A stretch of DNA of 64,000 bases from Terriglobia bacterium (GCA_963695545.1 OY968796.1:2592001-2656000), one strand, 5' to 3'; positions 38,289 through 64,000 are shown, numbered from the stretch's first letter. The notes: generated from the sequence alone by a model not told the origin. Translations and numbers: made by a program.

Positions 38289-39986
38289 ATGAAATTGACC
38301 AGACGCCAAGCACTGAAGCTACTCGGCTCCGCGGCACCGGCACTTGCACTTCGATCCAGCCTCGCGCGTGCGCAGGCGACCAACAACCTGAGCATTACCC
38401 CGGGCCCCTTCTCCGGTACTCGAGATTCGCTGGCCGCCTATCAAATTCCCGCGTGGTACAAGGACGCGAAGTTCGGCATTTGGGCTCACTGGGGGCCCCA
38501 ATCAGGAATTGAAGATGGCGATTGGTACGCGCGCAACATGTACGTTCAGGGAAGCGACCAATATGAATACGGCGCGGAGACTTTCGGGCACCCGTCGAAG
38601 GTGGGCTATAAAGATCTCATTCCAACTTTCAAGGCCGCGAAGTGGGATCCGGAACACCTGATGGACCTCTACGTCAAGGCCGGAGCCAAATACTTCGTCA
38701 GCATGGGCGTGCATCACGATAATTTCGATATGTGGGACTCGAAGTATCACGAGCGCTGGAATGCCGTGGCCACCGGACCGCATAAAGACATCGTGGGAAT
38801 GTGGGCCAAGGCGGCTCGAGCCCGAGGATTGCGTTTCGGAGTCAGCGAGCACCTGTCAAACAGCTTTGACTGGTTCGCTCCGGCACACGGCAGCGACGCG
38901 ACCGGTGATTTCGCGGGCGTACCCTACGACGGATCCGATCCAGCTTTCGCCGATTTGTACCACAGCTACGCGGATATGCCCGCCGACTTCGCGAAAACGG
39001 CCATGGCCATGGGACGCATCGCGCCCGATTCGTGGAAGCAAGAATATTTCAACCGCATTAAGGACCTGACCGATCAGCACCACCCCGACTTGCTTTACAC
39101 CGATGGCGGCATTCCATTTGAAGAGTATGGCCTCGCCCTCGTGGCGAACGTTTACAACCTGAGCGCCCAGATGCACGGTGGCAACGTCGAGGCCGTGTAC
39201 AACAGCAAGACGATCACCGACTGCACCACCGGAGTCTGCGCGCTCGATCGTGAACGAGGCGTTTCCGACGACATCTGGCCGACGACGTGGCAGACGGATA
39301 CTTGCATCGGGAATTGGCATTACAAACGGGGAGTCCACTACAAGACCGGAAAAAAAGTCGTCGACCTGCTCGTGGACATCGTCAGTAAAAACGGCAACTT
39401 GCTTTTGAATTTCCCGCTTCCCAACAGCGGCGAGCTGGACGTGGAAGAAATGCAGACGCTCAACGACCTTACCAAATGGATGACCGTGAACAGCGAAGGC
39501 ATCTATTCGAGCCGGCCGTGGAAAATCTTCGGCGAAGGCCCGGGTACGAAAATAGCGCCCCCGCCTCCAGGTGGCCCGGGAGGCGGCGGTGGCGGCGGTG
39601 GTTTCGGCGGTGCAGGCGGCGCTCGGCCGGCCGGGCAAGGCGTGCCGCCGGGCGGAGGCGGGCCAGGAATGGCAAGCGGAACCAACCGCGGACGCTTCAA
39701 CGAAAATCAGGTGCCCGAATTGACGTCCGCGGACGTGCGTTTCACAACGAAAGGAAGTCTGCTTTACGCCTTCGTGCAAGGCTGGCCGGACAATAATGCC
39801 GCCGTGGTTCAATCTTTGGGAACAACCAGTCCACAGATGCCCGGAAAAATCACCAATGTTCGGATGCTGGGCTACGACGGAAACTTGCAATTCACACAAG
39901 ACGAGAAAGGGTTGACCGTGACGCTGCCCGGCTCCAAACCCGCTTCGGCCGATATCGGCGTAACGTTGAAAATTACCGGCGCATAG
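38289..39986 (+). CDS. Alpha-L-fucosidase (GH29), Tat-exported
   Basis: TRRQALK; WYKDAKFGIWAHWG, GVHHDNF, LLYTDG, DIVSKNGNLLLN. Confidence 0.93.
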   Translation: MKLTRRQALKLLGSAAPALALRSSLARAQATNNLSITPGPFSGTRDSLAAYQIPAWYKDAKFGIWAHWGPQSGIEDGDWYARNMYVQGSDQYEYGAETFGHPSKVGYKDLIPTFKAAKWDPEHLMDLYVKAGAKYFVSMGVHHDNFDMWDSKYHERWNAVATGPHKDIVGMWAKAARARGLRFGVSEHLSNSFDWFAPAHGSDATGDFAGVPYDGSDPAFADLYHSYADMPADFAKTAMAMGRIAPDSWKQEYFNRIKDLTDQHHPDLLYTDGGIPFEEYGLALVANVYNLSAQMHGGNVEAVYNSKTITDCTTGVCALDRERGVSDDIWPTTWQTDTCIGNWHYKRGVHYKTGKKVVDLLVDIVSKNGNLLLNFPLPNSGELDVEEMQTLNDLTKWMTVNSEGIYSSRPWKIFGEGPGTKIAPPPPGGPGGGGGGGGFGGAGGARPAGQGVPPGGGGPGMASGTNRGRFNENQVPELTSADVRFTTKGSLLYAFVQGWPDNNAAVVQSLGTTSPQMPGKITNVRMLGYDGNLQFTQDEKGLTVTLPGSKPASADIGVTLKITGA

Positions 39987-40119
39987 CGGCCGGGAGCAAT
40001 GTCGCATTGATTGTTCCCGCAATCCTCGCGATCTCAATGCCGGCTTTCGGGAAATAATTCGCCTCTGCGCCGCGAAGCGGTGCAACAGATGTTGCACCGC
40101 TTCGAGGCGGACGCTCGGC

Positions 40120-41535
40120 CTAGCCGTTATAGCCCACGCCGTCGCGCGGTTTTTCCTTGCGCACCATCATGGTGTCCTGCACCGGCTCGCCGTCGCATTC
40201 GATCTCGATGGTCGTGGCGGGATTGTCCGGCGCTTCTTCGGGAAGCCCCGTTAGTTTCAGTTGCCACTTGTCCTGCGTAAACGCCACCGATTCTCCGCTC
40301 ACGTGCAACTTCGCGGATTTCACTCCGACCGTCAGTCCGGAGATGGCCACGTAGTCGCCCGGCCAGTTGTACACGTGCATGTAGAGCGTGTTGCCTTTGC
40401 GCGTGAACGCGGCGTAAGCCGAGCGCCGCACCTGGCACTGATCGGTGTTGATCACCGTGTCGCGATTGCGGCCCAGCCATTGCCCCACCTGCTGGAGCAC
40501 GGCCACCGAGTCCTCGGGAACCACGCCGTCGGCTCGCGGTCCGATGTTCAGCAAGTAATTGCCGGTGTCGCGCGCGCACGTGATCAGGTTGCGGACCACG
40601 GTCTTCGGCGATTTCCAATTGTCGTCGGCGCGCTGGTAACCCCAACTGTCGTTGAGCGTCATGCAGCTTTCCCACGCGCGCCCGCCGCTCTCGGCGCGGA
40701 TAATCTGTTCGGGCGTCGAGAAATCGGCCGCCAGACCATTGCGATTGTTGACGATGATGTCCGGCTGAAGGCCGTAGACCATCTCGTTCATCTTCACGGA
40801 TTGCCAGCCGTCAACATCCAGCGGCCAGTTGACGTCGTACCAAAGCACGTCAATCTTTCCGTAATTGGTCATCAGCTCGCGGATCAGCCCGTGCGTGTAG
40901 GTCACGAAGCGATCGCGCGCCGCCGGATCGGTCAAACAGTTGGCGCCGTCCGGATGGTGCCAATCCATCAGCGAATAGTAAAAGCCCACGCGCATTCCTT
41001 CGGCGCGCGCCGCGGCCACATACTCGGCGACTAAATCGCGGCCCGGGCCCTGCTGCATGGCGTTGTAGTTCGTGAGCTTGGTATCGAAATTGCAAAAGCC
41101 TTCGTGGTGTTTGGTGGTCATCACCATGTATTTCATGCCTGTGTCGCGCGCCACGCGCGCCCATTGGCGCGCCGCGTTGGGCCGCGGCTTGAATGTTTTC
41201 GCCAGCGCCTCGTACTGCTCGATAGGAGGCGCCTCAAACTCAAAATCCCACTCGTGCCGCGCCACCTGGCTGTACAAGCCCCAATGGATGAACATTCCGA
41301 ATTGCGCTTCGTGCCACCACTTCATTCGCTCTTCGCGGTTCAGGTCCTGTGGCGTGGGCGGCCCCGCTGCTGCGGTGGCCTGCGCCGGTGTAGTGGTCTC
41401 TCCGGCCCGGCCCTGCGGCGGACCGCCGTATTGCTGCGCTGCGGCGCTCAGCGCCGGCAACGAAACAGCACCGGCCGCTACGCCCGATGCTGTGCGAATC
41501 ATCCAATCGCGACGCGTCATCTTTTTCGATTTCAT
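40120..41535 (-). CDS. Alpha-L-fucosidase (GH29), Tat-exported
   Basis: AAGGAG RBS; TRRDWM; WWHEAQFGMFIHWG, TTKHHEGF, VLWYD, WESCMT, GNYLLNIGP. Confidence 0.95.
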   Translation of the reverse strand: MKSKKMTRRDWMIRTASGVAAGAVSLPALSAAAQQYGGPPQGRAGETTTPAQATAAAGPPTPQDLNREERMKWWHEAQFGMFIHWGLYSQVARHEWDFEFEAPPIEQYEALAKTFKPRPNAARQWARVARDTGMKYMVMTTKHHEGFCNFDTKLTNYNAMQQGPGRDLVAEYVAAARAEGMRVGFYYSLMDWHHPDGANCLTDPAARDRFVTYTHGLIRELMTNYGKIDVLWYDVNWPLDVDGWQSVKMNEMVYGLQPDIIVNNRNGLAADFSTPEQIIRAESGGRAWESCMTLNDSWGYQRADDNWKSPKTVVRNLITCARDTGNYLLNIGPRADGVVPEDSVAVLQQVGQWLGRNRDTVINTDQCQVRRSAYAAFTRKGNTLYMHVYNWPGDYVAISGLTVGVKSAKLHVSGESVAFTQDKWQLKLTGLPEEAPDNPATTIEIECDGEPVQDTMMVRKEKPRDGVGYNG

Positions 41536-41667
41536 GGCAGTTTTCGCTCCTTGTGGGTGAGTTTCGCGTTCTCCAGATTTTGTGAAGGCCCGGTGGCAAC
41601 GAATGCGCGCCCGAACAAAAACGCTCTGCGCCAAGATCGGAGATTTCCCCGACGTCGAGACCTCTTT

Positions 41668-42510
<843 letters not shown>

Positions 42511-42740: not shown

Positions 42741-44987
42741 TCACGGCGCCGTCTTCCACGCGGCAAGTTGGGTTTTCACCCACAGCGCGTCTTTTTCAGC
42801 GTGGCAAAGCAGGCAGGCGTTCGGGCTGTCGGATTGTCCGAAGCGGAGCGTCATATCGGCGTCGGGGATGTCGTCGATTTGGTGCGTGCGCGCACGAAAC
42901 GCCAGCGCGTCCATGATGCGCGGCATGTGACACGAAACACACTGGCTGCCCTCCGATTCCGGCGTGTGGTGTGTGTGTGCCTGAGCGACCGCCAAGTTCT
43001 GGAATTGCGTATGGCATCCAGTGCACATTTTATCCGGCTCGTTTGGGAATTTCAGTGACGTAAGATTTGACGACTCGTCGTGAGCATGTGGATCGTGGCA
43101 CGTGCCGCAGGTCACGCCGCCCTTTCGGAAGCACTGTGTCCGCTCGAGAGCCTCTACCATGAACGTCGTCTGGCGAAAGCGGCCGTCCCTGAAGAAAGCC
43201 TTGCGCGAAAATTCAAGGTAGGGAGTACGCTCGTAAGTCAGGAAAAAATTCCCTGTGCGCGAATAACTCATCTCTCCCTCTGGCCCGAATTCGCGAATTG
43301 CGGATTGCATGTGGCACTGCGCACAGACGGCCACGAACTGCCTGTTACTGATCTGGCCGAATTGAATCGGCGGATCGTACGGGCCCTTGTCGTAAGCAAT
43401 GCCGTCCTCCATTGCGGCGACGTGCCGCGCCGATGGACCGTGGCACATTTCGCAATTGATTCCCGGTTCCCGATAAACGATGCTCGCCGCATCAAGCGCG
43501 CCCGGTTTCGTATTGCGCACCTGGCTCGTATGGCACACGGCGCAGTTCGTCATGTAGTTCGTCGAGTTGTCGAGCGCTTCCCAAGTCCGGGGATCACTGC
43601 GTTCGCTGCCGGGGTCGTCGATCACTTTCCAATAGTTGAGCCACTGTTTGTAGATCACGTTGTACTGCACGGGAAGAACATGGATTTCGCCGTTCGGCAA
43701 TTTTGTAGCGTAGCCCTGTTGCCATTTCGATCCGATGGTGTAGTCGACCGGATATGTACGCCAAGTGCCGTCCGCTTGACGCATCTCGAAATAATGGCGG
43801 CCGTTGCGAAGCACCATGCGCGCAAACGGCGTGCGGTCGTCGCCGCGAACAATTTTGAGCGTGCCATCGAGATAAACCGGATCGTCGCCTAAAAAAAAAG
43901 TGTTGTTCTTCGTGAAATCACCGATCACATTCTGCGGCGCGTACGGCCGGAACATTCTTTCCATCCCGCTTGCGAGCCACTGCCGATAAATCCCGGCGTG
44001 GCAGGTCTGGCAGGAATCCGATCCGGCGTAGTCGAAAAGCGGCTGGCTGGGCGCGCTCACGGGGGCCGGCTGCGGCTCGGGCTGCGAATTCTGCTGGGCT
44101 TCGGCTCGCGCGAGAAATGCATCGAAATCCGCACCGGGCTGGAGCGCGCTGTAGATTTGGCGCAATTGTTGGAGCGCTTGCGGAGCAAGATTTCCGCCGC
44201 CTCGGTAAACCTTCGCGAGATCTCCTGCGGCTTGCATCGTTTCTCCCGCCGCGGCTTCGGCCAAGCCGAGTGTGTAGACGATTTCGGAATCCGCAGGATC
44301 CAGTCCTTTGGCTCGAGAGAGCGCCGCCTCCGATTCCTTGAGAAGTTCGGAACGCGCCGCACCAGCGGGCGCGTCAAGGCCTTCGGCCAGTTGCGCGCGT
44401 CCCATCGCGAAATTGGCCGAGGCTTGCAATTTGTGTTTGGCGTCGGGCCAGTCCGCCGTAGAAATCGAGGCGGGCCGCGCGAAGAGATCGAGATACTCAA
44501 GAGCGTCGCGCGCAGTTTCGATCGCTGCGTCGTTTTGTTGTTGATACGCTTGAACGTCCGCCATGGCCACAAGGAACATCGGATTTTCAGGCAACAATCG
44601 CAGCGATTGCTTTGCGTAGGCTAAACCATTTGTGTAGTCGCCGAGATCGAAGCTGGCGCGCGCGGCCGCCTCGTACGCTTTCGTCAAGTATGCCGACCGG
44701 GGGAAATTTTCGAGAAACGCTTTTGCGGAAGCCAGGAGTTCCTGAGGACTGGCGTTCTTGCTCAGCGCTTCAAACGCCGCGCGCTCGGCCGGATCGGAGA
44801 TCTGCCCGGCAATGGTAAACGCCTTGCGGTCCTTTGCCGTGACGACGGCGTCGATCACTTGGCTCGCGCAGTTCGCCGCGGCCGCCGAAATCAGGAGCAG
44901 CGCCAACGCAAGGTAACGCGCGCGCGGCAATCGCTGGCGCAAAACGGGCGGCGCCACGCGCGAGAATAAAATTGGGCTTCTCGTCAT
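42741..44987 (-). CDS. TPR plus octaheme c-type cytochrome fusion
   Basis: Signal peptide; N-terminal TPRs; 8 CXXCH (CQTCH, CAVCH, CEMCH, CAQCH, CGTCH, CTGCH, CVSCH, CLLCH). Confidence 0.9.
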   Translation of the reverse strand: MTRSPILFSRVAPPVLRQRLPRARYLALALLLISAAAANCASQVIDAVVTAKDRKAFTIAGQISDPAERAAFEALSKNASPQELLASAKAFLENFPRSAYLTKAYEAAARASFDLGDYTNGLAYAKQSLRLLPENPMFLVAMADVQAYQQQNDAAIETARDALEYLDLFARPASISTADWPDAKHKLQASANFAMGRAQLAEGLDAPAGAARSELLKESEAALSRAKGLDPADSEIVYTLGLAEAAAGETMQAAGDLAKVYRGGGNLAPQALQQLRQIYSALQPGADFDAFLARAEAQQNSQPEPQPAPVSAPSQPLFDYAGSDSCQTCHAGIYRQWLASGMERMFRPYAPQNVIGDFTKNNTFFLGDDPVYLDGTLKIVRGDDRTPFARMVLRNGRHYFEMRQADGTWRTYPVDYTIGSKWQQGYATKLPNGEIHVLPVQYNVIYKQWLNYWKVIDDPGSERSDPRTWEALDNSTNYMTNCAVCHTSQVRNTKPGALDAASIVYREPGINCEMCHGPSARHVAAMEDGIAYDKGPYDPPIQFGQISNRQFVAVCAQCHMQSAIREFGPEGEMSYSRTGNFFLTYERTPYLEFSRKAFFRDGRFRQTTFMVEALERTQCFRKGGVTCGTCHDPHAHDESSNLTSLKFPNEPDKMCTGCHTQFQNLAVAQAHTHHTPESEGSQCVSCHMPRIMDALAFRARTHQIDDIPDADMTLRFGQSDSPNACLLCHAEKDALWVKTQLAAWKTAP

Positions 44988-45346
44988 CGTCTGCGGATCG
45001 AGCCCGGAATATAGTCCCCGGTAGTCCGCGCTTGCAACTTGAAAGCGCGCAATGAAGAATGCGTGCGTTCATTTCGCGAGTCAAAGTTGCGCGCTCGCGC
45101 GAGAAGAATGCCTTAGATGAGCAGCTGGAAACGCTCGTCGGCGTCACGCGGAAAAATAATACTGTGAGAAACGGGCGCACGGAGTTGACGCCTCGCGCGA
45201 GTGCCTGCAATATCTGGCCTCGGAGGCGACCGGGTACTCGGGATTTGCCCGCGGGTTAGTGCGCAGTTTGGCGAGCTTCCTATTTGAGCGATGCGGCATG
45301 CGTGCCACGCCGCTCGGAGCCGCGGAACCCATACGCCATCGAAACC

Positions 45347-48942: not shown

Positions 48943-48986
48943 CGCTCGCGCCGAAAAGGCGCCAGAGCATAGATCAACCGGAGTTC

Positions 48987-50003
48987 TCAGCGTTTTGTCG
49001 AAGTGCGTACGATGAGCTTTGCCGGCAGCAGCACGGTTTTGGGCGCCGCGCCGGACTTCTTCTTGTTCTTGATGATCGTCAGAGCCAATTTCGCCGCGCT
49101 CGCGCCGAGCCCTTCGCTGTCTTGATCCACGCTGCTCAGCGGCACGCGGAGCATGTCGTCATAATGCAGATTGCCGCACCCGACGATTGCGATTTCTTCC
49201 GGGATCTTCAGGTCAGCTCCCAGGATCGCTCTCATCGCTCCAATCGCGATCGGATCGTTGAAGCAAAACACTCCGTCCGGCCGCGGAGTCAGGCGCAGAA
49301 GCTTCTTCATACTGTCGTAACCTATGGCATCGCCGGAGACGTCTCCTCGTCCCTGCTTAAGGATGTAGTCCATCGGCAGACTAAGCCGGTGCTTTGCCAT
49401 GGTCATCGAATAGCCCACTTCGCGGTCATGCGCGGTGCTCACTTCTCGTCCGCCGATATGCGCGATGGTTTTGCATCCGATCTCGATTAAGTGCGTCGTG
49501 GCAATCTTTCCGGCCATCACGTCGTCAATGCCGACAAAATTTGCCGTGAAGCCCGGGACTTTGCGATCAAGAAGCACGAAGGGAATGCCATCTTCCCTGA
49601 GCCTCTGGATACTGCCGAGATCCGATTGAACCGTCGCCAGGATCAAGGCATCCACGCGGCGCGCCATCATTTGATCGATCTCGCGCTTCTCCAGAGCAGG
49701 ATTCTCCTCCGAGGACGAAATCATCAGACTATATCCCTGCCCGCTCAATTTTGTGGAAAGGCCTTGAGCAACTTGTGCGAAAAATGGATGAACTAGGTCG
49801 GGAACGATCAGCCCGATCAAATCGGTGCGGCCGGTCGCCAGCGCTCGGGCCGCCAGATTCGGCTGGTAATTCAGTTCTTTCGCGCGCTGCAAAACACGCT
49901 TGCGCGTGGCCGGGCTGATATCGGGGTGATTCCGCAAAACCTTCGATACCGTGACCACGGAAAGTGCCAGGTCACGGGCGATGTCCTTCATAGTGGTTGG
50001 CAT
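48987..50003 (-). CDS. LacI family transcriptional regulator
   Basis: TMKDIARDLALSVVTVSKVL, YQPNLAARAL, FCFNDPIAIG, LIVRTST. Confidence 0.96.
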   Translation of the reverse strand: MPTTMKDIARDLALSVVTVSKVLRNHPDISPATRKRVLQRAKELNYQPNLAARALATGRTDLIGLIVPDLVHPFFAQVAQGLSTKLSGQGYSLMISSSEENPALEKREIDQMMARRVDALILATVQSDLGSIQRLREDGIPFVLLDRKVPGFTANFVGIDDVMAGKIATTHLIEIGCKTIAHIGGREVSTAHDREVGYSMTMAKHRLSLPMDYILKQGRGDVSGDAIGYDSMKKLLRLTPRPDGVFCFNDPIAIGAMRAILGADLKIPEEIAIVGCGNLHYDDMLRVPLSSVDQDSEGLGASAAKLALTIIKNKKKSGAAPKTVLLPAKLIVRTSTKR

Positions 50004-50545: not shown

Positions 50546-50724
50546 CGCCGCCATAGTATGAAGCTACTAGCAGGTGCGCTTTCCCAACGCTCTTTATATA
50601 CGTTAACTGCAACGTGTAAGGCAAGCGTTGACTAAGCGCTTTTTTAAAGCTCGACGAAGAGCTAGGGCTCCGGGGTTGTGCCGTAAAAATCTAATTTTGA
50701 GCTGGTGCAAAAGGGGGAACTACC

Positions 50725-54501: not shown

Positions 54502-54531
54502 CGCGGACTCGATCGGTTGTTTGTTATGACG

Positions 54532-54709: not shown

Positions 54710-57382
54710 ATGTCGAATCAGCGGAAGTTCATAGTCGCCCGAGTCGGATCGCTGGGTCTGGCGCTGGCTCTCAGCACCGCCGCTGTCGCTCAGTCCCAGG
54801 CGAATCCACCGGCGGACCCGCCGTCGCAACCGTCTTCACAACTTCCCGCCGAATGTACCGCTCCCAGAGGATCGTCTGACCCGCTCGAACCTTCCATCCA
54901 AGCGCTCGGACCGAATCCAAGCGCCGCGGCGCTCGCAAAGCTTGGGAATGAATTTGGGCGCGCCGCGGATTTCAAGTGCGCCGAAGCGGCTTTTGAGGCC
55001 GCTCTCGTTCTTGATCCAACCGAATGGCAAACCCGGTACGATCTCGCTCTCGCGCTGATTGAAAATCACGAGTCCAGCCGGGCGGTTGGCGAGCTCAACA
55101 CGCTCATCGCCCAGCAGCCGAATTCCTCAGTTGCTCATAACGCGCTAGGGCTGGCGCTGCAGGCTGCAGGCCAATTGGACGCCGCCGCCGCCGAGTTCAA
55201 GGCCGCGCTCAGAATCGATCCGCACTTTGATCTGGCGTCCTACAACCTTGCGCAACTCCTGGCCTCTCAAAAGGAATTTTCGGCGGCGATTCACTATCTC
55301 AAATCGGCGCTTTCGGATTCTCCCGCGCCCGCGCCCGAACTCGCATTCAGTATCAAACTGGCGCTCGCCGCCGCCTATTCGCAGACTGGAGACTACAAAG
55401 ACTCAATTCCGATTCTTCAGCAGGCCGTCGCTGCTCACCCGGATTCGCGCGACCTCCACTACGATCTGGCCACCGACTATGCCGATAATCAAAGCTACGC
55501 AAAAGCCGCGGACGAATTTAAAGAGGCTTTGCGCTTGCAACCGCACGACGGCGCGGCGGAACTCTCCCTGGCCAAAGCCCAGTTGAACATGAGTGCCGTG
55601 GAAGAATCCATCCCTTATCTCGAAGATTACAACCAGCAAAATCCCGGCGATCCGGAGGGCACGGAAATCCTGGGCGACGCGCTGAAGGATTCTGCGCACC
55701 AGGACGAAGCGCTCCGGGTTCTCGCTCGCGCCGTGCAATTGAATCCGTCCAGTTACAAGTCGCACTACGACTTTGCCGTAGTTCTCAATCGCGCCGGACG
55801 CGACGACGACGCTATCCGCGAACTGCAAGCGGCCATCGGATTGAAACCCGATGGCGCCGAGGCTCGCTATCTGCTCGGCCGTATCCTCTCAAAGCGCAAC
55901 GATTCCGCGGCCGCAAATCAGCAATTTCAAGTCTTCGAGCAATTGAAGCAGAGCGACACTCACGGCGCCCAGGCGGCGCTCCTGAACAGCCAAGCGAACG
56001 AATTGCTGCAACAGGGAAAAACTCAAGCGGCCGTCGATGCCTACCAGAAGGCTCTGCTTCTCGATCCCAACGACGCGAGTATTCATTTCAATCTCGCGCT
56101 CGCGCTCGAAAAACTGGACGATTCTGCCGGCGCGGAGCGCGAGCTCAAAAAGGCCATTGAGCTCAATCCGAAATTCGATCAGGCACACACTGAACTCGGA
56201 TCCACATTCATGCTTGAGGGCCGAATGCCCGAGGCCGAGCGCGAGTTCCAGGCCGTAATTGACGACGACCCGCAATCGGCGCAAGCGCTCAACAATCTCG
56301 GAACGCTCTACGGCCGCGAGGGAAGGAACGCCGAAGCTGTCGCGCTGCTTCAGAAGGCTGTTTCACTCGATCCCCAATTTCTTCAGGCCTACGTAAATCT
56401 GGGATTGACGCTCGCAGCCGAGGGCGACTTTGCGAACGCTGAAGAACAATTTCAAGCCGCGCTGCGCCTCGATCCCAATAATCCGAATGCCTTGACAGCT
56501 CTCGGCATGCTTCAGGGAAAGACCGGGAAAGATCCGGATTCAGTCCAGACCTTCCGAAAACTTACCGCGCTCTATCCCGCGTCGGCCACGGCCCACGTGA
56601 ATCTCGGCATTGCCCTGGTAAACGTCTACGATCTGCGCGGAGCGCTCGCCGAATTTCAACAAGCCGCGCGCCTCGATCCCAATCTTCCCATCGCGCACTT
56701 CAGCACCGGCCGCGCACTCTATGCGTTGAACGAAATGGACCAGGCCGAGCAGGAACTCAGAATCGCGATTCGCCTCGCGCCAACTTATATCGACGCGATG
56801 TTTCTTCTCGGCGTAATCGAGCACTCATCCCCGGATGCCACCGACCTATTTCGTAAAATCGTCGAGCTACAGCCGAACAATTCCGAGGCGCGTTTCTATC
56901 TCGGGCGAGATCTTCTAGACGAGGGAAAACGGGACGAGGCGGTCGCGCAGTGGGAAAAGGCCGTCGAAGCCGATCCCGATAATCTTTCGGCTCTCTCGAG
57001 TCTCGCGCGAACGCTCAATCAAATGAAGAGTCCGGACGCCCCGAAATACACGGCGCAACTCGACGCCGTGCAAAAGCATTTGGAACTGACGGACCGCGTC
57101 CAGCGGCTGAGCAATTTCGCGCTGCAATCCGCGGACGACAACGACTGGCCGCAGGCCATCAGCCAGATGCAGCAAGCCATCGATCTGTGCAACGGTTGCG
57201 CGCAGCTCGGAATTCTGCGCAAGAACTTGGGCATCATTTACGCGCGGCGTGGCGATACCGATGATGCCAAGCAGCAACTCGAACTCGCTCTGAAGCTCCT
57301 GCCCGAGGGCGCAGACTCCGTCGCGACCTCCGAGGCGCTTCGTCGCTTGAGTCCCGAGACCACAACTCCAAATCAAAATTAG
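54710..57382 (+). CDS. Large periplasmic TPR protein
   Basis: Signal peptide; many 34-aa repeats (AHNALGLAL, ALNNLGTLY, AYVNLGLTL). Confidence 0.93.
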   Translation: MSNQRKFIVARVGSLGLALALSTAAVAQSQANPPADPPSQPSSQLPAECTAPRGSSDPLEPSIQALGPNPSAAALAKLGNEFGRAADFKCAEAAFEAALVLDPTEWQTRYDLALALIENHESSRAVGELNTLIAQQPNSSVAHNALGLALQAAGQLDAAAAEFKAALRIDPHFDLASYNLAQLLASQKEFSAAIHYLKSALSDSPAPAPELAFSIKLALAAAYSQTGDYKDSIPILQQAVAAHPDSRDLHYDLATDYADNQSYAKAADEFKEALRLQPHDGAAELSLAKAQLNMSAVEESIPYLEDYNQQNPGDPEGTEILGDALKDSAHQDEALRVLARAVQLNPSSYKSHYDFAVVLNRAGRDDDAIRELQAAIGLKPDGAEARYLLGRILSKRNDSAAANQQFQVFEQLKQSDTHGAQAALLNSQANELLQQGKTQAAVDAYQKALLLDPNDASIHFNLALALEKLDDSAGAERELKKAIELNPKFDQAHTELGSTFMLEGRMPEAEREFQAVIDDDPQSAQALNNLGTLYGREGRNAEAVALLQKAVSLDPQFLQAYVNLGLTLAAEGDFANAEEQFQAALRLDPNNPNALTALGMLQGKTGKDPDSVQTFRKLTALYPASATAHVNLGIALVNVYDLRGALAEFQQAARLDPNLPIAHFSTGRALYALNEMDQAEQELRIAIRLAPTYIDAMFLLGVIEHSSPDATDLFRKIVELQPNNSEARFYLGRDLLDEGKRDEAVAQWEKAVEADPDNLSALSSLARTLNQMKSPDAPKYTAQLDAVQKHLELTDRVQRLSNFALQSADDNDWPQAISQMQQAIDLCNGCAQLGILRKNLGIIYARRGDTDDAKQQLELALKLLPEGADSVATSEALRRLSPETTTPNQN

Positions 57383-57434
57383 CGAGCTCGGAAGTCGAAT
57401 TCGATTTTTTCTGCAGGAAATTCGCGCGCGCTCT

Positions 57435-59159
57435 TCATCTCGTCGGAGCTTTATCGCCCGTTCCCGCCGAAGGCTCCGTGACGTGCAGAAACTGATCGCA
57501 GTGAACATTCTGAAGGGTCTGCACGATTCCGCTCGGCCACCGAATCTCCACCGATTGCACGATGGATTCAGTTCCCAAACCGAAATGAACTCGCTTATCG
57601 CTGGCCGAGAGATAACTGCCAGTCGTGCTGACCATCGCGTATTGCGAGCCCTTGGCGGTCACGATTTTCACTTCCGCTCCGATCGCGTCGCGATTGCTCT
57701 TCGTTCCCTGGAGTTCAATAGTGATCCAATGATTTTTGGTCTCGGTTCTGTTCATCAAAATGTGAAGCGATCCGTCGTTCGTCGTCACCACGGCGTCGAT
57801 GCGGCCATCGTTGTCGATATCGCCGATGGCCAGTCCCCGGCCCACCCACGGTTTTTGAAACACGCTCCCGGATTCCGCGAAGCCGTGGCCGGTGTTGCGC
57901 AGCAGCATCATGGGCTCGCGATAACGCATACTCGGATTGGTCAGCTCGATCGTGTCCAAATCGTGTCCCTGCGCAATCAGCAGATCCTTCCAGCCGTCGT
58001 TGTCGTAGTCGATGAATCGAACTCCCCATCCGGAGTGAGCCATGGTCATGCGCGCGATGCCGGAGTTGTAACTGGCGTAAGCGAATGTGCCGTCGCCGTT
58101 GTTCTGATACAGCGCGTAGCGTTGACTTGCGAGATCCGTGACCACGAGATCCGGCCATCCGTCGTTGTTGTAATCCGCGAAATCCACTCCCATCCCCGCG
58201 TAGGTCCCCCCGTCGCCGTCGACGGCTGCTCCGGAGGGCAATCCGACTTCCTCGAACGTTCCGTCGCCCCGATTGTGATAAAGGAATTCCACCATCGAAT
58301 CGTTGGCCACAAACAGGTCGACGTGCCCATCGCGGTCATAATCCCCAATCGCGATTCCGAGTCCTTTTCCCGGTTTCGAGATGCCGATACTCTGCGAGAT
58401 CTCTTTGAAGTGTCCGTTGCCTTCGTTGTGGTAGACCAGCGGCGCGATCGCGGGAAACACGTCGGGTTGGCAGTATGCGCGATAGCCCTCTTTGTGCTCG
58501 CCGCACCAGATGTCGTCGAAGTCCCAATCGACGTATCGAAGTACAACCAGATCGAGCAGCCCATCGTTGTCCAGATCAACCCACGCGGCGCTCGTTGACC
58601 ATCCGCTGCCGCCGACACCGGCCTCCGCCGTGACATCGGTGAAGGTTCCGTTTCCATTGTTGTGATAAAGATGGTTCCCGCCATAACCCGTCACATATAA
58701 ATCCTCGTAGCCGTCGTTATCGTAATCGCCCACGGCCACTCCCATGCCGTATCCCGCGCCCGCGAGACCGGCCTTCTCCGTCACGTCCTCGAATGTGCCG
58801 TCCGGCTTCTGGTGATAAAGCCGATTCCAATATCGAGGCCCGTCCTTCTGCGGGATCGTGCCTTTCGGCGTAGGGTCACTCAGCGGCGCGCCGTTAACCA
58901 CAAAAATATCGAGGCGCCCGTCGTTGTCGTAATCAAAAAGCGCCACGCCCGCTCCCATCGTCTCGAGCAAATATTTCTTCGAGGTGTGCGAGGCGAGATA
59001 CTCGAAATGAATGCCGCTCGAGGACGTAACGTCTACGAAATTCCCGGGTATGTCAGCGTCCGTTTGAGGCCGCGCTTCCTGCTGAGACTGTTGCGCCGGC
59101 ACGCCCGCCACGGCCGCTACACAAAGCACGAAAGCCGATAAAACCGATTTTTGCATCAT
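57435..59159 (-). CDS. CRTAC1 family protein (FG-GAP plus ASPIC/UnbV); start uncertain (59159 or 59222)
   Basis: FDYDNDGRLD, GDYDNDG, GTKSNRDAIGA...YLSASDKRVHFGLG. Confidence 0.93.
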   Translation of the reverse strand: MMQKSVLSAFVLCVAAVAGVPAQQSQQEARPQTDADIPGNFVDVTSSSGIHFEYLASHTSKKYLLETMGAGVALFDYDNDGRLDIFVVNGAPLSDPTPKGTIPQKDGPRYWNRLYHQKPDGTFEDVTEKAGLAGAGYGMGVAVGDYDNDGYEDLYVTGYGGNHLYHNNGNGTFTDVTAEAGVGGSGWSTSAAWVDLDNDGLLDLVVLRYVDWDFDDIWCGEHKEGYRAYCQPDVFPAIAPLVYHNEGNGHFKEISQSIGISKPGKGLGIAIGDYDRDGHVDLFVANDSMVEFLYHNRGDGTFEEVGLPSGAAVDGDGGTYAGMGVDFADYNNDGWPDLVVTDLASQRYALYQNNGDGTFAYASYNSGIARMTMAHSGWGVRFIDYDNDGWKDLLIAQGHDLDTIELTNPSMRYREPMMLLRNTGHGFAESGSVFQKPWVGRGLAIGDIDNDGRIDAVVTTNDGSLHILMNRTETKNHWITIELQGTKSNRDAIGAEVKIVTAKGSQYAMVSTTGSYLSASDKRVHFGLGTESIVQSVEIRWPSGIVQTLQNVHCDQFLHVTEPSAGTGDKAPTR

Positions 59160-59420
59160 TGCCTGGGCGCCACGCGCCAATCCGCGAGGTGAGGCAGCCG
59201 AAAATAATTTGACCAACTTCATCACGCCGAACTTTATCTCTTTCGCGGGCCCGATACAACCTAAGTGCTTGAACATCAGTAGTCTACAACCAATCGAGAG
59301 ATCCGGGCCGGCGCGCTTCGAGGCTTGTTTTTGTGTTATTGTGTGGTGCTTGTCAGCCTCCAAAGGTTCCTCGCTCGGCTCGATGGGGAGAGGATTATTT
59401 TGGTCCGCTGCGTGAATAAT

Positions 59421-62093
59421 ATGCGCACAAAGTCCGCAGCCATTTGCGGTTTGCTCGTTTTCATCGGCCTAGCTGCCTTCTGTTCGCCTCTGTTCTCTCA
59501 AAATTCCCAAACCACGCAGGACGCCGGCTCGGTCGAGGTGCCCTTGCAAGTGATCGTGGTGCGCACTCCGGAGGAAGCGCAAGCCATCCTCGAGCGCCTG
59601 AAAAATGGCGAAGACTTTGGCGCCCTCGCCAAAGAAAATTCCATCGATCCAACGGCGAGTTCCGGCGGCTTCATGGGTTTTCTCGCGCCCGATTCGCTGC
59701 GGCCAGAATTGAGAGACGCCCTGAAAGGACTGGCCGCCGGTCAAATCACCGGCGTCATAGACGTCCCTAGCGGCTACGCCATCCTGAAAGTCATGGCCAA
59801 TGGAAGCAACGTCAATAGGTACAGACCCAGCGGCATGGGCGACGTCTCGCCGGATCTCGCACGAAGTTTTGATTTGGCTGCCACGGGCGCTGTGAAATAC
59901 GCGCCTCCTGTTGACGGTCTTGGCGAGATGGAAATCGTCCTTAGCCAGTTTCCGAAACCTCGCGGATGGAATGCCGATCCAGACACCGCCTGCGCGATCC
60001 GCAAGCAGTCCGTCGTTGAGATGATCGCCAAGCTCAGCAGCGCGCTGGCGCCGGAAAATCAGGCCGCTCTTTCAGGCCGCGCGCCCATTGACGTTATGCA
60101 GCTTCACGTTGGCCTTGCTCAACTTTATGCCTTTCAGGGCGACATGACGCCCTCGATTGAGCACTACGAGGCCGCGTACCGAATCGCGTTGTCCGACGTT
60201 CCGGCGGCGGTGCCTCAGGAGGAAGAGTCGTTGGGAATCGTGTATCTCCATAAGTCGGAAATGGACAATGACGTGTACAGTAAGCCTGGCCAGAAGTGTA
60301 TTTTTCCGATGCGCCCAGGGACCGCGTATGAGCACACCGATGATTCCCAAAAGGCTGTCGATTACTTCCTGAAATATCTCGAAACGAAGCCGGACGAATT
60401 GGAAGTTAAGTGGCTGCTTAATCTTGCTTATATGACGATGGGAAAATATCCTGGCGCGGTCCCTCAGAAATACTTGATTCCGCTCTCCGCATTTGAATCC
60501 AAGGAAGATATCGGGCGGTTTCTGGACGTGGCGTCGGCGGCGGGCCTCAATTCCTTCTCCGAGGCCGGCGGCGTGATCGTCGACGATTTTGAAAATAACG
60601 GCCGGTTCGACGTAGTGACTTCCAGCTTCGACAGTTGCAGCTCGCTGCGCTATTTCCACAACAATGGCGATGGCACCTTCACGGACCAGACGGAAAAATC
60701 CGGATTGTCCAAGGTGCTTGGCGGCCTCAACATCATTCAAACCGATTACAACAACGACGGCTGCCTGGATATTTTAGTTCTTCGTGGCGCTTGGGAATTT
60801 GCGCAACGCACCAGCTTGCTCCGGGGCAATTGCGACGGCACGTTCACCGACGTCACCGAGCAAAGCGGCCTGGGCAACGTGACGACAACGTCGCAAGCCG
60901 GCGTCTGGGCGGACATCAACAACGACGGATGGCTCGACCTGTTCATCGCCAACGAAAACGGCCCGAACGAACTTTTTCTCAACATGAAGAACGGTACATT
61001 CAAAGACATCGCGCTATCCGCGGGAGTCGCCGGCGACGGCACGGCGTATTCCAAGGGCGTTGCCGCAGCGGACTACGACAACGACGGATATGTGGATTTC
61101 TACGTCTCGAATTTAGCCGGCCCCAACTCTCTGTATCACAATAATCACGACAATACGTTTACCGAAGCCGCCGAGAAGGCCGGGGTGCGTGGCAACGGCA
61201 AAAGTTTCGCCACGTGGTTTTTCGATTACGACAACGATGGCCTCCCAGATATTTTCGTGACCAGCTATTTTGTTTCGGTCGACGAAACTCTCCGCACGTA
61301 TCTGGATCTTCCCCACAACGCCACGACCCTCAAGCTATATAAGAATCTCGGAGATGGCACTTTTCGCGATGTCACCAAGGAAGTCGGCCTCGACAAGGTG
61401 TTCATGCCCATGGGAGCAAATTTCGGCGACGTCGATAATGACGGCTATCCGGACATCTACCTCGGTACCGGAGGTCCGTCTTACGGCGCGCTCGTGCCCA
61501 ACGTCCTGCTTCGCAACGATGAGGGCAAACATTTCACCGACATCACCGCTTCGTCCGGCACGGGCGAGCTTCACAAAGGCCATGGCATCGCCTTTGCCGA
61601 CCTTACGAACACCGGAAATGAGGACATCATTGCGGAGATTGGCGGAGCCACGCCGGGCGATCGCCATGCGCTGCGCCTTTTTGAAAATCCAGGCCATGAC
61701 AACGATTGGATCGCCTTGAAGCTTGTGGGGGTTAAGACCAATCGCGCGGCCATCGGCGCGCGCATCAAAGTTACCGTGGAGAACAAAGGCCAGGTCGTGC
61801 GCTCGATCTACAGCACCGTGGGCAGCGGCGGATCGTTCGGCGCATCGCCGCTTGAGCAGCACATCGGCTTGGGAAAATCGGCCACGATCCGCAGAATCGA
61901 GATTTTCTGGCCGGTCAGTGGTACGCACCAAATTTTCACCAACGTGGCCAAGAATCAATTCCTCCAAATTACGGAACTGGCGGACAGCTACACGAAGCTA
62001 GACCGCAAGCCCGTACGCCTGGGCGGCCCGCTAAATACCGCGGCAGCCGTTTCAGCGTTGGCGACGGAAAGCCCCGCGTCACATCAGCAATGA
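59421..62093 (+). CDS. Parvulin-type PPIase + TPR + CRTAC1/ASPIC-UnbV fusion
   Basis: EEAQAILERLKNGEDFGALAKENSIDPTASSGGFMG rotamase segment; helical repeats; DYNNDG repeats; GVKTNRAAIGA...EQHIGLG. Confidence 0.9.
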   Translation: MRTKSAAICGLLVFIGLAAFCSPLFSQNSQTTQDAGSVEVPLQVIVVRTPEEAQAILERLKNGEDFGALAKENSIDPTASSGGFMGFLAPDSLRPELRDALKGLAAGQITGVIDVPSGYAILKVMANGSNVNRYRPSGMGDVSPDLARSFDLAATGAVKYAPPVDGLGEMEIVLSQFPKPRGWNADPDTACAIRKQSVVEMIAKLSSALAPENQAALSGRAPIDVMQLHVGLAQLYAFQGDMTPSIEHYEAAYRIALSDVPAAVPQEEESLGIVYLHKSEMDNDVYSKPGQKCIFPMRPGTAYEHTDDSQKAVDYFLKYLETKPDELEVKWLLNLAYMTMGKYPGAVPQKYLIPLSAFESKEDIGRFLDVASAAGLNSFSEAGGVIVDDFENNGRFDVVTSSFDSCSSLRYFHNNGDGTFTDQTEKSGLSKVLGGLNIIQTDYNNDGCLDILVLRGAWEFAQRTSLLRGNCDGTFTDVTEQSGLGNVTTTSQAGVWADINNDGWLDLFIANENGPNELFLNMKNGTFKDIALSAGVAGDGTAYSKGVAAADYDNDGYVDFYVSNLAGPNSLYHNNHDNTFTEAAEKAGVRGNGKSFATWFFDYDNDGLPDIFVTSYFVSVDETLRTYLDLPHNATTLKLYKNLGDGTFRDVTKEVGLDKVFMPMGANFGDVDNDGYPDIYLGTGGPSYGALVPNVLLRNDEGKHFTDITASSGTGELHKGHGIAFADLTNTGNEDIIAEIGGATPGDRHALRLFENPGHDNDWIALKLVGVKTNRAAIGARIKVTVENKGQVVRSIYSTVGSGGSFGASPLEQHIGLGKSATIRRIEIFWPVSGTHQIFTNVAKNQFLQITELADSYTKLDRKPVRLGGPLNTAAAVSALATESPASHQQ

Positions 62094-63028
62094 GCGGAAC
62101 AAAATCGCGCCCGGCGCCCGTGTATCTCAATCGAGCGATGTTCCTCGCTGTCGCGCTTGTCTGCTTTGTAGATGCCGCATCGGCTGCACAGAATTACACC
62201 GTGCGCGGACTCGTGTTGAAGGTCGACAAGCCGAACCGATCCCTGGTTGTTTCTTGCGAAAGAATCCCCAACGTCATGAACGCCATGGTCATGCCGTTCA
62301 CCGTGCGCAGCGCCTCTGAACTCGATGGTTTGGATGCCGGAACCATGATCCAATTCACTCTCGTCGTCGACGGCGAGTCTTCCTACATCACCGCAATTCG
62401 CATTCAAAAATACGAAAGCGTCGAGGCGGATCCGTTAGGCGCCCGGCGCTTGAGCCTCATGGAGGAGGTGGCGAATCCCTCGTCGGCGCCGGCGCAGCTG
62501 AAGACCGGTGACGCCGTGCCCGATTTCTCGCTCATCGACCAGAATAGCCAGCGCGTGGCGCTCTCGCAATTCAAGGGCAAGATTGTGGTCATGACTTTCA
62601 TGTACACGCACTGTGTGCTTCCCAATTTCTGTTTTCGCACCGCCAATAATTTCCGCCTATTGCAGAAGCGCTTTGCCGATCAGTTGGGGAGCAACTTGAT
62701 ATTCATAAGCATCACCTTCGATCCCGAGCACGACACGCCCGCAGCCTTGGCCCAGTACGGCAAGACATGGAACGCGGATCCGAAGAGCTGGAAGCTTCTT
62801 ACGGGGCCTCAGGCCGAAATCGATAAGGTCAGCGGCCAATTCGGGGTGACCTACTTCGCCGACATGGGACTCATAACCCACTCTCTGCATACCGTCATTA
62901 TTACGCGAGACGGAACTTTGGCGGCCAATCTCGAAGGGAACGAATTTAACGCCGATCAGCTCGGCGACCTTGTGCAAACCGTGCTGGCTGGCGCGCGAAA
63001 TCCAAGCACCGCAAGCGCCGCGCAGTAG
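62090..63028 (+). CDS. CusF-like + SCO/SenC copper-binding protein
   Basis: ATGA overlap; RGLVLKVD...CERIPNVMNAMVMPF; PDFSLIDQN, TFMYTHCVLPNFC, SITFDPEHDTP, THS. Confidence 0.88.
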   Translation: MSGTKSRPAPVYLNRAMFLAVALVCFVDAASAAQNYTVRGLVLKVDKPNRSLVVSCERIPNVMNAMVMPFTVRSASELDGLDAGTMIQFTLVVDGESSYITAIRIQKYESVEADPLGARRLSLMEEVANPSSAPAQLKTGDAVPDFSLIDQNSQRVALSQFKGKIVVMTFMYTHCVLPNFCFRTANNFRLLQKRFADQLGSNLIFISITFDPEHDTPAALAQYGKTWNADPKSWKLLTGPQAEIDKVSGQFGVTYFADMGLITHSLHTVIITRDGTLAANLEGNEFNADQLGDLVQTVLAGARNPSTASAAQ

Positions 63029-63085
63029 AGCCAGAGTCGGCGGACGGTCAATTGCCGAATCGAATTTAATCGCAAGGGAGAGCCG

Positions 63086-64000
63086 ATGGATGCGCGCGCC
63101 GAGCACCGGCTTGGACGCAGAAGATTTTTGGCGGGCTTGGCGGCCTGCGGCGCCACGGCAATCGTTCCGAAACAAATTGACGGCGCGTTTCTTCGAGAGC
63201 GGACCGAAAGTGTGTCGGAGACAAAAGAAGTCGCCGAAATTTTCCTGGACATCAACCGGATCTACAAATGGGACACGTCGAATGGAGACACCTGGGATCC
63301 GTTCTGGGCGGACGACGGCAATCTCTACGCATTCAATTGCGATGGCCGTGGTTTTGGCGCGCAAAACAAAATGAATCTGGCCTTCAATCGGCTCGCGGGA
63401 GAAAGTCCGTCGAGCCTCGTCGGCACGCAAGTCAATGAGATGGATGAATACGGCAAGGGCGGCCAAAAGGGCCCCGACAACGCCACGTGGAAAGCTTGCG
63501 GACAGGAATGCATCGACGGCGTTTTCTACGCCTTCGTCTCGAGAAACGTCTACGGCCGCGACAGCAAAGATCCACTTCTCCGCCAATTGGCGAGCAATTC
63601 GAGCCTCATCAAATCAAGCAATCGCGGCCTCAGTTGGACGCGCAGCGCCGGCGAGAACTATGACCATCCGATGTGGCCGGGGAATCGTTTCGGAGCGCCG
63701 TTCTTTATTCACTACGGAATGAATGGCGGCCAGGTCTCGCGAGACGGTGCGAGTGAGTACGTCTACGCGGTTTCCACCAACGGTTTCTGGAATGACGGCG
63801 ACAATCTGATTTTGGGCAGAGTGAAACGCGTAGAGCTTCCCAACCTGAACAGCGCGGATTGGCAATATTTCACCGGCGGAGATGGCGGCGTCGCGACAAA
63901 TTGGTCGCCGCATATCGAAAGTGCTGTCGCGATCATCGATCGCTCCGCCAAGTGTAGACAGACGCCCGCTTGTTACGTGCCCGCGCTGGGAATCTATCTG
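63086..64000 (+). CDS. Tat-exported DUF4185-like beta-propeller protein, partial (runs off the right edge)
   Basis: Translated by hand: GGGAG RBS, MDARAEHRLGRRRFLAG..., GDTWDPFWADDGNLY, SSLIKSSNRGLSW Asp-box; absent from the ORF track. Confidence 0.75.
   Translation, partial: MDARAEHRLGRRRFLAGLAACGATAIVPKQIDGAFLRERTESVSETKEVAEIFLDINRIYKWDTSNGDTWDPFWADDGNLYAFNCDGRGFGAQNKMNLAFNRLAGESPSSLVGTQVNEMDEYGKGGQKGPDNATWKACGQECIDGVFYAFVSRNVYGRDSKDPLLRQLASNSSLIKSSNRGLSWTRSAGENYDHPMWPGNRFGAPFFIHYGMNGGQVSRDGASEYVYAVSTNGFWNDGDNLILGRVKRVELPNLNSADWQYFTGGDGGVATNWSPHIESAVAIIDRSAKCRQTPACYVPALGIYL

Follow-up and report, generated by a model that had tools for sequence, protein, structure and literature searches.

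TonB-dependent transporters for glycosides have been reported outside the Bacteroidota (PMC13543919), and polysaccharide utilization loci (PULs) of the SusC/SusD type, like the SusD-free loci of the Xanthomonas type, hold a receptor, glycoside hydrolases, a sugar catabolic enzyme and a regulator in one region. The same set occurs in a stretch of 64,000 nucleotides from Terriglobia bacterium (GCA_963695545.1 OY968796.1:2592001-2656000; the whole stretch is here called the window), where positions 38,289 to 64,000 also encode multi-heme cytochromes, CRTAC1 (ASPIC/UnbV) propellers, tetratricopeptide repeat (TPR) proteins and a CusF-SCO fusion. Two further described systems are relevant, i.e., the clade 3 multi-heme cytochromes, to which OcwA, OmhA, MccA and c554 belong (PMC9250108), and the 3-keto-glycoside pathway, in which glycosides are oxidized in the periplasm, in a cytochrome c-linked manner, before they are cleaved (PMC8121099; 10.1101/2024.03.25.586180). 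Exported enzymes of glycoside hydrolase family 29 (GH29), a receptor, a LacI regulator and a cytoplasmic fucose dehydrogenase are shown by homology, and we hold with high confidence that the locus has a fucose-glycan role. The genes for the TPR-octaheme and heptaheme cytochromes, TPR proteins and CRTAC1 travel together in related genomes, and they also travel with fucose and sugar-acid genes. Taken as a whole, we consider it plausible, if a little short of probable, that this is a LacI-associated TonB-receptor fucose locus whose cassettes make up periplasmic redox enzymes, with imported fucose-containing or related sugars as their substrates. Its open reading frames (ORFs) are the following.

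38289..39986, plus strand: GH29 alpha-L-fucosidase a, twin-arginine N-terminus (PF01120, E 1.4e-84; PF16757)
40120..41634, minus strand: GH29 alpha-L-fucosidase b, twin-arginine N-terminus (PF01120, E 1.7e-84)
41668..42465, minus strand: L-fucose dehydrogenase, a short-chain dehydrogenase/reductase (SDR) without export signal (NF052481)
42741..44987, minus strand: TPR-octaheme cytochrome c, 748 amino acids, heme domain at 42744-44039 (8 CxxCH)
45284..47137, plus strand: CRTAC1 propeller 1, FG-GAP and ASPIC/UnbV (PF13517, PF07593)
47134..48942, plus strand: heptaheme cytochrome c with C-terminal TPR (7 CxxCH)
48987..50003, minus strand: LacI-family regulator (PF00356, PF13377)
50725..54501, plus strand: TonB-dependent receptor with a carboxypeptidase-regulatory-like N-terminal domain (PF25183, E 4e-170; PF13620)
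54710..57382, plus strand: large exported TPR protein, 890 amino acids (many TPR families)
57435..59363, minus strand: CRTAC1 propeller 2 (PF13517, PF07593)
59325..62093, plus strand: parvulin-like domain, TPR and CRTAC1 propeller 3 (PF00639, PF13517, PF07593)
62090..63028, plus strand: CusF-SCO fusion (PF02630, PF11604)
63086..64000, plus strand: twin-arginine protein continuing beyond the window, DUF4185-like as a lead (homolog clustering)

A scan of species-representative genomes yielded 391 relatives of the octaheme, from which the best 80 loci were kept, i.e., the closest fifth and not a random sample; since no part of the broad octaheme alignment was sufficiently conserved to scan for loci, the scan used a closer one. 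Neighbors were counted on six frames, with our own profiles built from the same 80 loci and our own cut-offs. CRTAC1 was present in 64 of the 80 loci, a receptor in 51, orthologs of the large TPR protein in 45, the heptaheme in 40 and a RhaT-type transporter in 35, followed by a fumarylacetoacetate (FAA) hydrolase (23), two enolase-superfamily dehydratases (23 and 18), a pyrroloquinoline quinone (PQQ) dehydrogenase-cytochrome fusion (21), GH29 (20), an RraA aldolase (17), a UxaA-type protein (16), a ThuA-domain fusion (16), an L-fuconate dehydratase-like protein (15), a mutarotase (14), a fuconolactonase-like protein (6) and GH95 (4). Any fucose marker was found in 30 loci, a fucose, RhaT or sugar-acid marker in 68, and CusF-SCO and parvulin-CRTAC1 in none of the 80. 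The first control took 40 of 55 non-self matches to distant octahemes from 250 randomly drawn genomes of the phylum, and gave CRTAC1 in 3, a receptor in 4, the heptaheme in 1 and RhaT, fucose and sugar-acid markers in none; within this draw (4 candidates scored per genome) there was no full-length TPR-octaheme, and distant relatives occurred in 47 genomes. For the second control, 11 of the 16 close relatives with matches supplied 38 partly overlapping stretches centered on ASPIC genes; a receptor was present in 17, a pentaheme in 8, and a heptaheme or fucose marker in none. The recurrence of this neighborhood, whose analysis an earlier note made from the sequence alone had called for, is thus far above the controls and tied to fucose and sugar-acid genes. 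We had at first supposed the fucose link to be unique to this locus, which its recurrence in related loci disproved.

For a test at the scale of whole genomes, 50 of the 80 loci were used, mostly on long contigs and one per genome. A fuconate dehydratase homolog (matching 2HXT, E 3e-98) is encoded in 30 of these 50 genomes, and 15 of the 30 have it no more than 20 kb from the octaheme; without the query genome the count is 14 of 29 vs about 0.3 expected, i.e., about 50 times chance. The octaheme occurs in at least three gene orders, and the fucose link holds across them. The window-like order has CRTAC1, RhaT, dehydratase, octaheme, heptaheme, regulator, receptor and TPR; the second has GH29s and several CRTAC1-TPR pairs; the third has a PQQ dehydrogenase, a ThuA fusion, a pentaheme and sugar-acid enzymes without a fucose marker. 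In the tree of the octahemes, 11 changes of the fucose label are needed, and well-supported branches force 8 of them. The loci L075, L076, L079, L082 and similar ones, in which a PQQ-type dehydrogenase-cytochrome fusion, a ThuA-domain fusion, the octaheme, CRTAC1 and a soluble pentaheme are accompanied by a 164-residue protein without a Pfam match, a vicinal oxygen chelate (VOC) protein and a dehydratase, form a second candidate oxidative sugar pathway.

The two cytochromes are TPR fusions with seven and eight hemes, as the earlier note had described them and as the CxxCH counts confirm, with the TPR part at the N-terminus of the octaheme and at the C-terminus of the heptaheme. They are homologous to each other (24% identity over 417 columns, E 3e-19), and the octaheme domain belongs to a family of 5114 clusters at 50% identity. 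An octaheme model from 85 sequences (predicted local distance difference test, pLDDT, 94.9) matches OcwA (6I5B; Foldseek E 2e-12, template modeling score, TM, 0.61; Z 20.7, root-mean-square deviation, rmsd, 3.1 over 337 residues), OmhA (6QVM, Z 13.2), MccA (4RKM, Z 9.3) and cytochrome c554 (Z 4.8), and the profile match to OcwA reaches E 1e-39. This fold lends part-support to the redox role that the earlier note had given the cytochromes, the solved members being catalytic or electron-transfer proteins. In OcwA, hemes 1, 3 and 4 are bis-His ligated and heme 2 is open beneath a His-His pair; heme 2 also serves as the active site in c554 and MccA, where it is likewise the open site (PMC6703420). 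The profile alignment sets three His of the half of OcwA with hemes 1-4 opposite M342 (aligned with the His after heme 1), H522 and C619 (aligned with an OcwA His), i.e., hemes 1-4 of the octaheme have three conserved ligand positions as in OcwA, and the heme-2 His-His pair falls on a non-His stretch, the R605/T607/T608/F609 region. Within the TPR-octaheme subfamily M342 is Met in 80 of 81 sequences, H522 is His and C619 is Cys in all 81, and H634, H671, H674, M688 and H702 are likewise invariant (80-81 of 81). At the first ligand position the wider alignment (85 sequences) has 61 His and 21 Met, and at the third it has 65 Cys, 11 Met and 8 His; such an interchange of His, Met and Cys fits a metal ligand position. 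We infer that the octaheme has one His/Met heme and one His/Cys heme, and its heme 2 is probably open, in a non-His pocket with invariant T608, F609 and E612. The heptaheme retains M123 and C368 (35-sequence alignment; numbering from the ORF start at 46999) and the same 35 sequences also conserve another Cys (C410) plus a His (H359) close to the heme-2 pocket. A 389-residue heptaheme of the same fold family, without TPR and with two conserved non-motif Cys, adjoins the octaheme in 7 loci (L124:7783-8949, L083, L092, L107). At L092 (G298:C12) an octaheme and a heptaheme share a single frame of 1365 codons with 15 heme motifs, a single case, perhaps due to assembly.

Ligation of heme by Cys is typical of cytochromes that handle sulfur, e.g., SoxA and TsdA, and this counts towards an alternative in which the cytochromes are OcwA- or MccA-like reductases of nitrite, hydroxylamine, sulfur compounds or an extracellular acceptor, serving as a respiratory or detoxifying outlet during sugar use. 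The fold shared with OcwA and MccA and the slow reduction of nitrite and hydroxylamine by OcwA (PMC6703420) point the same way. Nevertheless, we think such a role quite improbable, given that the residues opposite the OcwA heme-2 pair are not His, that one OcwA heme and the C-terminal helical bundle are absent, and that no nitrogen- or sulfur-cycle genes are found among the annotated recurrent neighbors.

The propellers were approached through gene 59325, which, in addition to what the earlier note had described, combines a parvulin-like domain and TPR helices with CRTAC1. Its model, covering residues 190-900 (pLDDT 95.9; predicted template modeling score, pTM, 0.94), matches mouse CRTAC1 (9ETN; Z 39.7, rmsd 2.3 over 454 residues, 21% identity; Foldseek E 2e-28), and the matches after CRTAC1 are integrins and fungal lectins. 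The pTM of 0.94 implies that the TPR part packs rigidly on the propeller and, by analogy, supports TPR-propeller docking in the split forms; most CRTAC1 subfamilies have a fixed gene partner, i.e., a TPR protein, a cytochrome-TPR or a fused TPR. Parvulin prolyl isomerases have two conserved histidines at two motifs; across 81 aligned proteins, His is not among the common residues of the parvulin-like domain at either motif. The non-glycine positions kept in at least 93% of the CRTAC1 alignment (127 sequences) include the calcium-loop Asp and D316, M352, H427 and R474 of propeller 1, the latter four at strand-A starts or B-C loops according to blade order. Loops of the DxDxDG type, predicted to bind calcium, are present and conserved in the CRTAC1 proteins. 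Since the conserved pocket lies on the face opposite these A-B calcium loops (for their position in integrin-type propellers see PMC3192720), the calcium is probably structural, and the earlier note's picture of Ca-binding propellers that bind or oxidize imported glycans is not supported in that form. In close relatives CRTAC1 genes adjoin genes for hydrazine-synthase-alpha-like, propeller-peroxidase and periplasmic binding proteins (L028:1889-3280, L014:10146-12062, L043:3890-5314), in keeping with PMC12758564. The genomes of one family (G103, G160, G180, G207, G260) gave 103-125 first-look candidates for the CRTAC1 query, suggesting very large expansions.

The integrin-type propeller lectins 2BWR and 4TQJ among the Foldseek matches (E 1e-8) would suit propellers and TPR proteins that are non-catalytic glycan-binding or scaffold partners of the receptor, a periplasmic SusD-like role, with cytochromes that act as redox sensors or serve another enzyme, e.g., the PQQ dehydrogenase of 21 octaheme loci; the makeup of the second control, with its receptors and pentahemes and no heptaheme, is also in line with this. 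We rate such a role as unlikely. The lectin matches are far weaker than that to CRTAC1, CRTAC1 lies within 12 kb of only 4 of the 27 PF25183-type receptor loci of the genome (two of them in this locus) and is therefore no general SusD substitute, and a dedicated copper chaperone with a His3/Met cluster fits an enzyme better than a lectin.

This chaperone and its presumed client form a cassette of their own. The 50 genomes have 32 SCO matches, and at all of the 14 closest matches, which we examined, parvulin-CRTAC1 stands directly upstream of SCO (in one case in pieces), as it does in two same-genus genomes. Among metagenome loci (the best 80 of at least 571), 72 extend 500 nt or more downstream, the other 8 ending too early for scoring; CusF-SCO directly follows parvulin-CRTAC1 in 56 of the 72. 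In the random draw from the phylum the propeller-3 subfamily is found in 50 of 250 genomes and SCO follows in 4 of the best 29 non-self loci; these four group in one clade with all other SCO-coupled proteins in a quick tree. Conservation and the model together point to the following feature.

Codons 61410, 61572, 61581 and 61665, plus strand: candidate copper site of propeller 3, M696, H750, H753 and H781

The four residues occur together in every one of the 20 SCO-coupled proteins. In the 26 that lack SCO, H753 and M696 are retained and H748 is mostly present; H750 occurs in 2 of them and H781 in 2. In the secondary structure of the model the four residues lie at strand-A starts or in the B-C loop of blades 6 and 7, on one face. 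Over 61 aligned CusF-SCO sequences, two Cys and a His are invariant in the SCO part, including the distal His, as are a Cys/His and three Met in the CusF part, and the SCO Cys are spaced C-x5-C in 61 of 61 rather than CxxxC; the SCO domain scores 77 bits with PF02630 (cut-off 22.8), and the fusion matches Sco structures at E 1e-16 to 1e-17. We thus somewhat favor copper in propeller 3, at the candidate His3/Met site. Some 48 kb upstream of the locus and just beyond the window there is another gene of the CusF-SCO type (G000:C1:2582135-2583115). As MccA, with which the octaheme shares its fold, has copper in its active site (PMC6703420), CusF-SCO might instead supply copper to an MccA-like heme-copper site in the octaheme and not to the propeller; with SCO absent from all 80 octaheme loci, one conserved non-motif Cys vs two in the MccA catalytic set (PMC9250108), and that single Cys aligned with an OcwA His, we give this very little credence. 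The single periplasmic complex of the earlier note gives way to separable cassettes, CusF-SCO traveling with parvulin-CRTAC1 and not with the octaheme.

Returning to periplasmic redox enzymes, we envisage that TPR arms hold the cytochromes and the scaffold against the propellers, in the region of the top face, which is not that of the calcium loops, and that the chemistry would take place in the Asp/Met/His/Arg pocket of the propeller, at the open heme 2, or at both. Electrons would pass along the heme chain, whose Met- and Cys-ligated hemes may span a wide potential range. In the separable cassette, CusF-SCO would load copper into the His3/Met site of propeller 3, and the substrate need not be fucose. 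Because free fucose has its own dehydrogenase, modified or linked sugars are the likelier substrates, e.g., methylated fucose, or glycosides oxidized before cleavage as in the 3-keto route. A more far-reaching proposal, which we offer tentatively and consider rather doubtful, is that bacterial CRTAC1/ASPIC-UnbV propellers are the catalytic heads of unrecognised periplasmic carbohydrate oxidoreductases, one branch with copper (His3/Met, CusF-SCO-loaded) and the others docked by TPR on open-heme OcwA-fold cytochromes with His/Cys and His/Met hemes, and that soil Acidobacteriota use them on fucose-containing glycans.

Several observations weigh against periplasmic redox enzymes that act on such sugars. 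Kinship inflates the counts, 25 of the 31 fucose-labeled rows (window included) falling in one clade; no fucose marker lies within 10 kb in 50 of the 80 octaheme loci; the marker profiles were drawn from the tested loci with cut-offs of our own setting; and the distant-octaheme control comes mostly from other classes, perhaps with fewer sugar genes. The wider octaheme family (5114 clusters) shows no sugar link, and a fucose gene is near 4 of the 27 receptors in the genome (two of them again in this locus), a receptor baseline of about 15%. Searched with our own profiles, the genome (93.8% complete) yields no counterpart orthologous to the fuconate dehydratase, lactonase, mutarotase or PQQ-cytochrome. 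A true L-fucose dehydrogenase (NF052481) is 1 of 13 neighboring SDRs tested from octaheme loci, the other 12 being rejected as such. With a cytoplasmic NAD-type fucose dehydrogenase present, periplasmic oxidation of free fucose is not needed. The CRTAC1 that adjoins the heptaheme differs among gene orders. As to copper, 14 of 15 loci without SCO nearby retain the His triad. A second parvulin-TPR-CRTAC1 of the same genome (L008:13218-15953; G000:C1:4072218-4074956), 79% identical to the window 59325 protein, also keeps the triad with no SCO downstream; it could share the window's chaperone. The SCO-coupled set is one clade and counts as a single event, and motif and partner may just have been inherited together.

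The many combinations and orders of the cassettes, the CRTAC1 genes between hydrazine-synthase-like genes (PMC12758564) and the presence of the octaheme in 2 of 21 close relatives (heptaheme type in 3) would fit yet another account, in which the cassettes are independent cell-envelope modules without sugar chemistry that gather at TonB-receptor islands and are co-inherited. Applied to all cassettes, we find this unlikely, since the proximity to fuconate dehydratase, about 50 times chance, survives gene-order shuffling, and since the fucose link is also seen in loci with CRTAC1, TPR and parvulin-CRTAC1/SCO but no octaheme: in 5 of 50 genomes the parvulin-CRTAC1/SCO pair lies 8-19 kb from a fuconate dehydratase homolog, and in the four of these that were checked it sits inside a window-like locus (CRTAC1, TPR) without octaheme, probably all one lineage. 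Applied to the pair alone, the independent-module account is the one towards which we lean. GH29 is found within 6 kb in 2 of the 80 parvulin-CRTAC1/SCO loci, and two same-genus genomes have the pair in sugar-free contexts; the pair is not fucose-specific.

Window translation with Pfam and NCBIfam profile searches found every ORF named in the earlier note for 38289..64000 at its position and, with one exception, in its family; the exception is the 63086 protein, for which the DUF4185-like label stands as a lead without a Pfam match. Its full-length homolog groups with an Atlas cluster in which 13% of members have DUF4185, and a homolog occurs in 3 of the 80 octaheme loci. The gene changes frame about 200 nt beyond the window end (L001:1087-2700; G000:C1:2655086-2656700), and contigs of two other runs cross this point without an indel, so the frameshift seems real in the organism. 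Likewise confirmed are the ATGA overlaps of CRTAC1 with the heptaheme (47134-47137) and with CusF-SCO (62090-62093), and export signals, read by eye as signal-peptide-like or twin-arginine N-termini on all proteins of the locus except the SDR and LacI. The SDR passes the NF052481 equivalog cut-off (394.8 vs 300 bits). The real start of GH29b is probably about 100 nt within its ORF, that of propeller 2 near 59159 and that of gene 59325 at ATG 59421. GH29a has a long Gly/Pro-rich low-complexity insert (residues about 425-470) separating its catalytic and C-terminal domains. The genes lie on both strands in several units, not in a single operon, and the locus extends about 10 kb past the window, where it encodes a third GH29, a protein of fucosidase/fucoidanase-like type, another that is GH95-like and a second receptor; the GC content of the extended locus is 0.586 vs 0.606 for the genome. 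A twin-arginine protein of UxuA/AP_endonuc_2 fold (window 34125-35252) lies 3 kb upstream. One regulatory feature is given as a lead only.

38224..38233, no strand: candidate LacI-type operator upstream of GH29a (10-mer pattern, also at 50633 upstream of the receptor)

The pattern was derived from these two sites themselves. It has 8 intergenic matches in the genome, two of which are those upstream of GH29a and the receptor, and looser patterns occur 1.7 to 5 times as often as expected; none of the strict matches lies upstream of the cytochrome or CRTAC1 genes. A perfect palindrome with 11 bases in common with it lies upstream of a homologous LacI in G312 (L188:9000-9020). Promoter and terminator scans gave about the same as shuffled sequence (5 vs 7.0 and 31 vs 23.5).

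At the level of the genome, SusD (PF07980) has 0 matches, a Bacteroides control being positive, and none was found in 5 of 5 other carrier genomes. Of the earlier note's "SusD-independent" complex the absence of SusD therefore stands and the locus-specific meaning does not: with 27 receptors and no SusD in the genome, and the other carriers likewise, the absence is uninformative about this locus because it is genome-wide. The genome has 10 ASPIC/UnbV genes in four clusters, all within or near glycoside-hydrolase regions; of the three other clusters, one lies by GH1/GH30, one by GH2 together with a pentaheme-TPR, and one in an arabinose/GH127/GH43/GH51 region where a nine-heme paralog of the heptaheme is encoded, too. 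This nine-heme protein (L007:6181-8937; G000:C1:4049178-4051937) consists of a heptaheme-type domain 40% identical to the window 47134 protein, TPR and a reaction-centre-type diheme domain, and the diheme part is a separate gene in 9 of the 80 octaheme loci. The genome also has a trio (L006:8842-16948; G000:C1:2739842-2747951) of a membrane pentaheme-TPR, of another cytochrome family than those of the window, with CRTAC1 and TPR-CRTAC1, and the trio is kept in most close relatives. There are 3 matches to PF01578 (cytochrome c assembly) in the genome.

Bacterial ASPIC/UnbV genes are abundant (the 10 copies here; 17 of 21 close genomes), and this locus offers a candidate substrate class for them, fucose-containing glycans. 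It offers named residues for mutagenesis and a candidate metal as well, and so renders the ASPIC/UnbV question testable. If our proposals are true, a copper site on an integrin-type propeller would be new chemistry, and so would a Cys/Met-ligated OcwA-fold cytochrome in sugar use. Acidobacteriota being major soil bacteria, a redox route in glycan use would bear on soil carbon turnover, and the function would also be a lead for vertebrate CRTAC1, which has the same fold. The open-access full texts searched hold no description of this gene set, SCO/CusF with CRTAC1 not having been searched for, and in the literature searched we found, as the earlier note had it, no assigned biochemical function for bacterial ASPIC/UnbV. 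UnbV is a gene of the enediyne cassette, and no paper with UnbV and enediyne together was found in open-access full text. The cited sources speak of three conserved enediyne cassette genes of unknown function (PMC9992847), mention ASPIC/UnbV in passing as an expanded paralog family in Solibacter (PMC3174227), treat the human protein (PMC10477339) and, in 2011, call the function of bacterial integrin-type propellers unknown (PMC3192720).

Compared with OcwA, OmhA, MccA and c554, the octaheme has the same fold, down to the beta-sheet domain that lies between heme 1 and heme 2, and its ligand count would leave heme 2 open. Unlike OcwA, which has 9 hemes, a His-His pair over each of hemes 2 and 5 and a C-terminal helical bundle, the window cytochromes have 8 or 7 hemes and a TPR arm, Met and Cys at two His positions, no heme-2 His-His pair and a sugar-gene context. 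The two Cys of MccA bind copper. That sulfite reductase has two conserved catalytic Cys and a CX15CH heme motif (PMC9250108), whereas the octaheme has one conserved non-motif Cys and no long-spaced motif among its conserved Cys. With mouse CRTAC1 the window protein has the seven-blade FG-GAP propeller and the PF07593 domain in common, and it differs by the fused parvulin-like and TPR parts, the His3/Met cluster and the pairing of its kind with cytochromes or CusF-SCO. Copper radical oxidases are propellers with a Tyr-Cys cofactor and His/Tyr copper ligands; galactose oxidase (AA5) is not among the listed fold matches of the gene 59325 model, no Tyr-Cys pair was identified in it, and the set here is His3/Met. 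The 3-keto-glycoside pathway, which has LacABC/ThuAB or a Gfo/Idh/MocA dehydrogenase together with a lyase and a hydratase, is echoed by ThuA-domain and AP_endonuc_2 genes in one octaheme gene order; the window locus has no flavoprotein dehydrogenase, ThuA or Gfo/Idh/MocA gene, related loci have partial sets, and the electron carrier here is a 7-8 heme protein. With Sco1/SenC and CusF the fusion shares both domains above the Pfam cut-off, two Cys and a His, and a Met-rich CusF site; its differences are the C-x5-C spacing, the fusion of the domains and a neighbor that is a propeller gene and not a heme-copper oxidase gene. Finally, as in PULs, carbohydrate-active enzymes and a regulator are co-located (two GH29 and LacI in the window, GH29 and a GH95-like protein beyond), and as in SusD-free loci a receptor, hydrolases and a regulator are present; the window locus has no inner-membrane transporter, and a RhaT-type one is found in 35 of the 80 related loci. 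In place of a susC-susD tandem there is a receptor of the PF25183 type, to which multi-heme cytochromes, CRTAC1, TPR scaffolds and a copper chaperone are added, and we conclude that this is a real, recurrent and apparently undescribed variant of the TonB-receptor carbohydrate locus with redox and copper cassettes.

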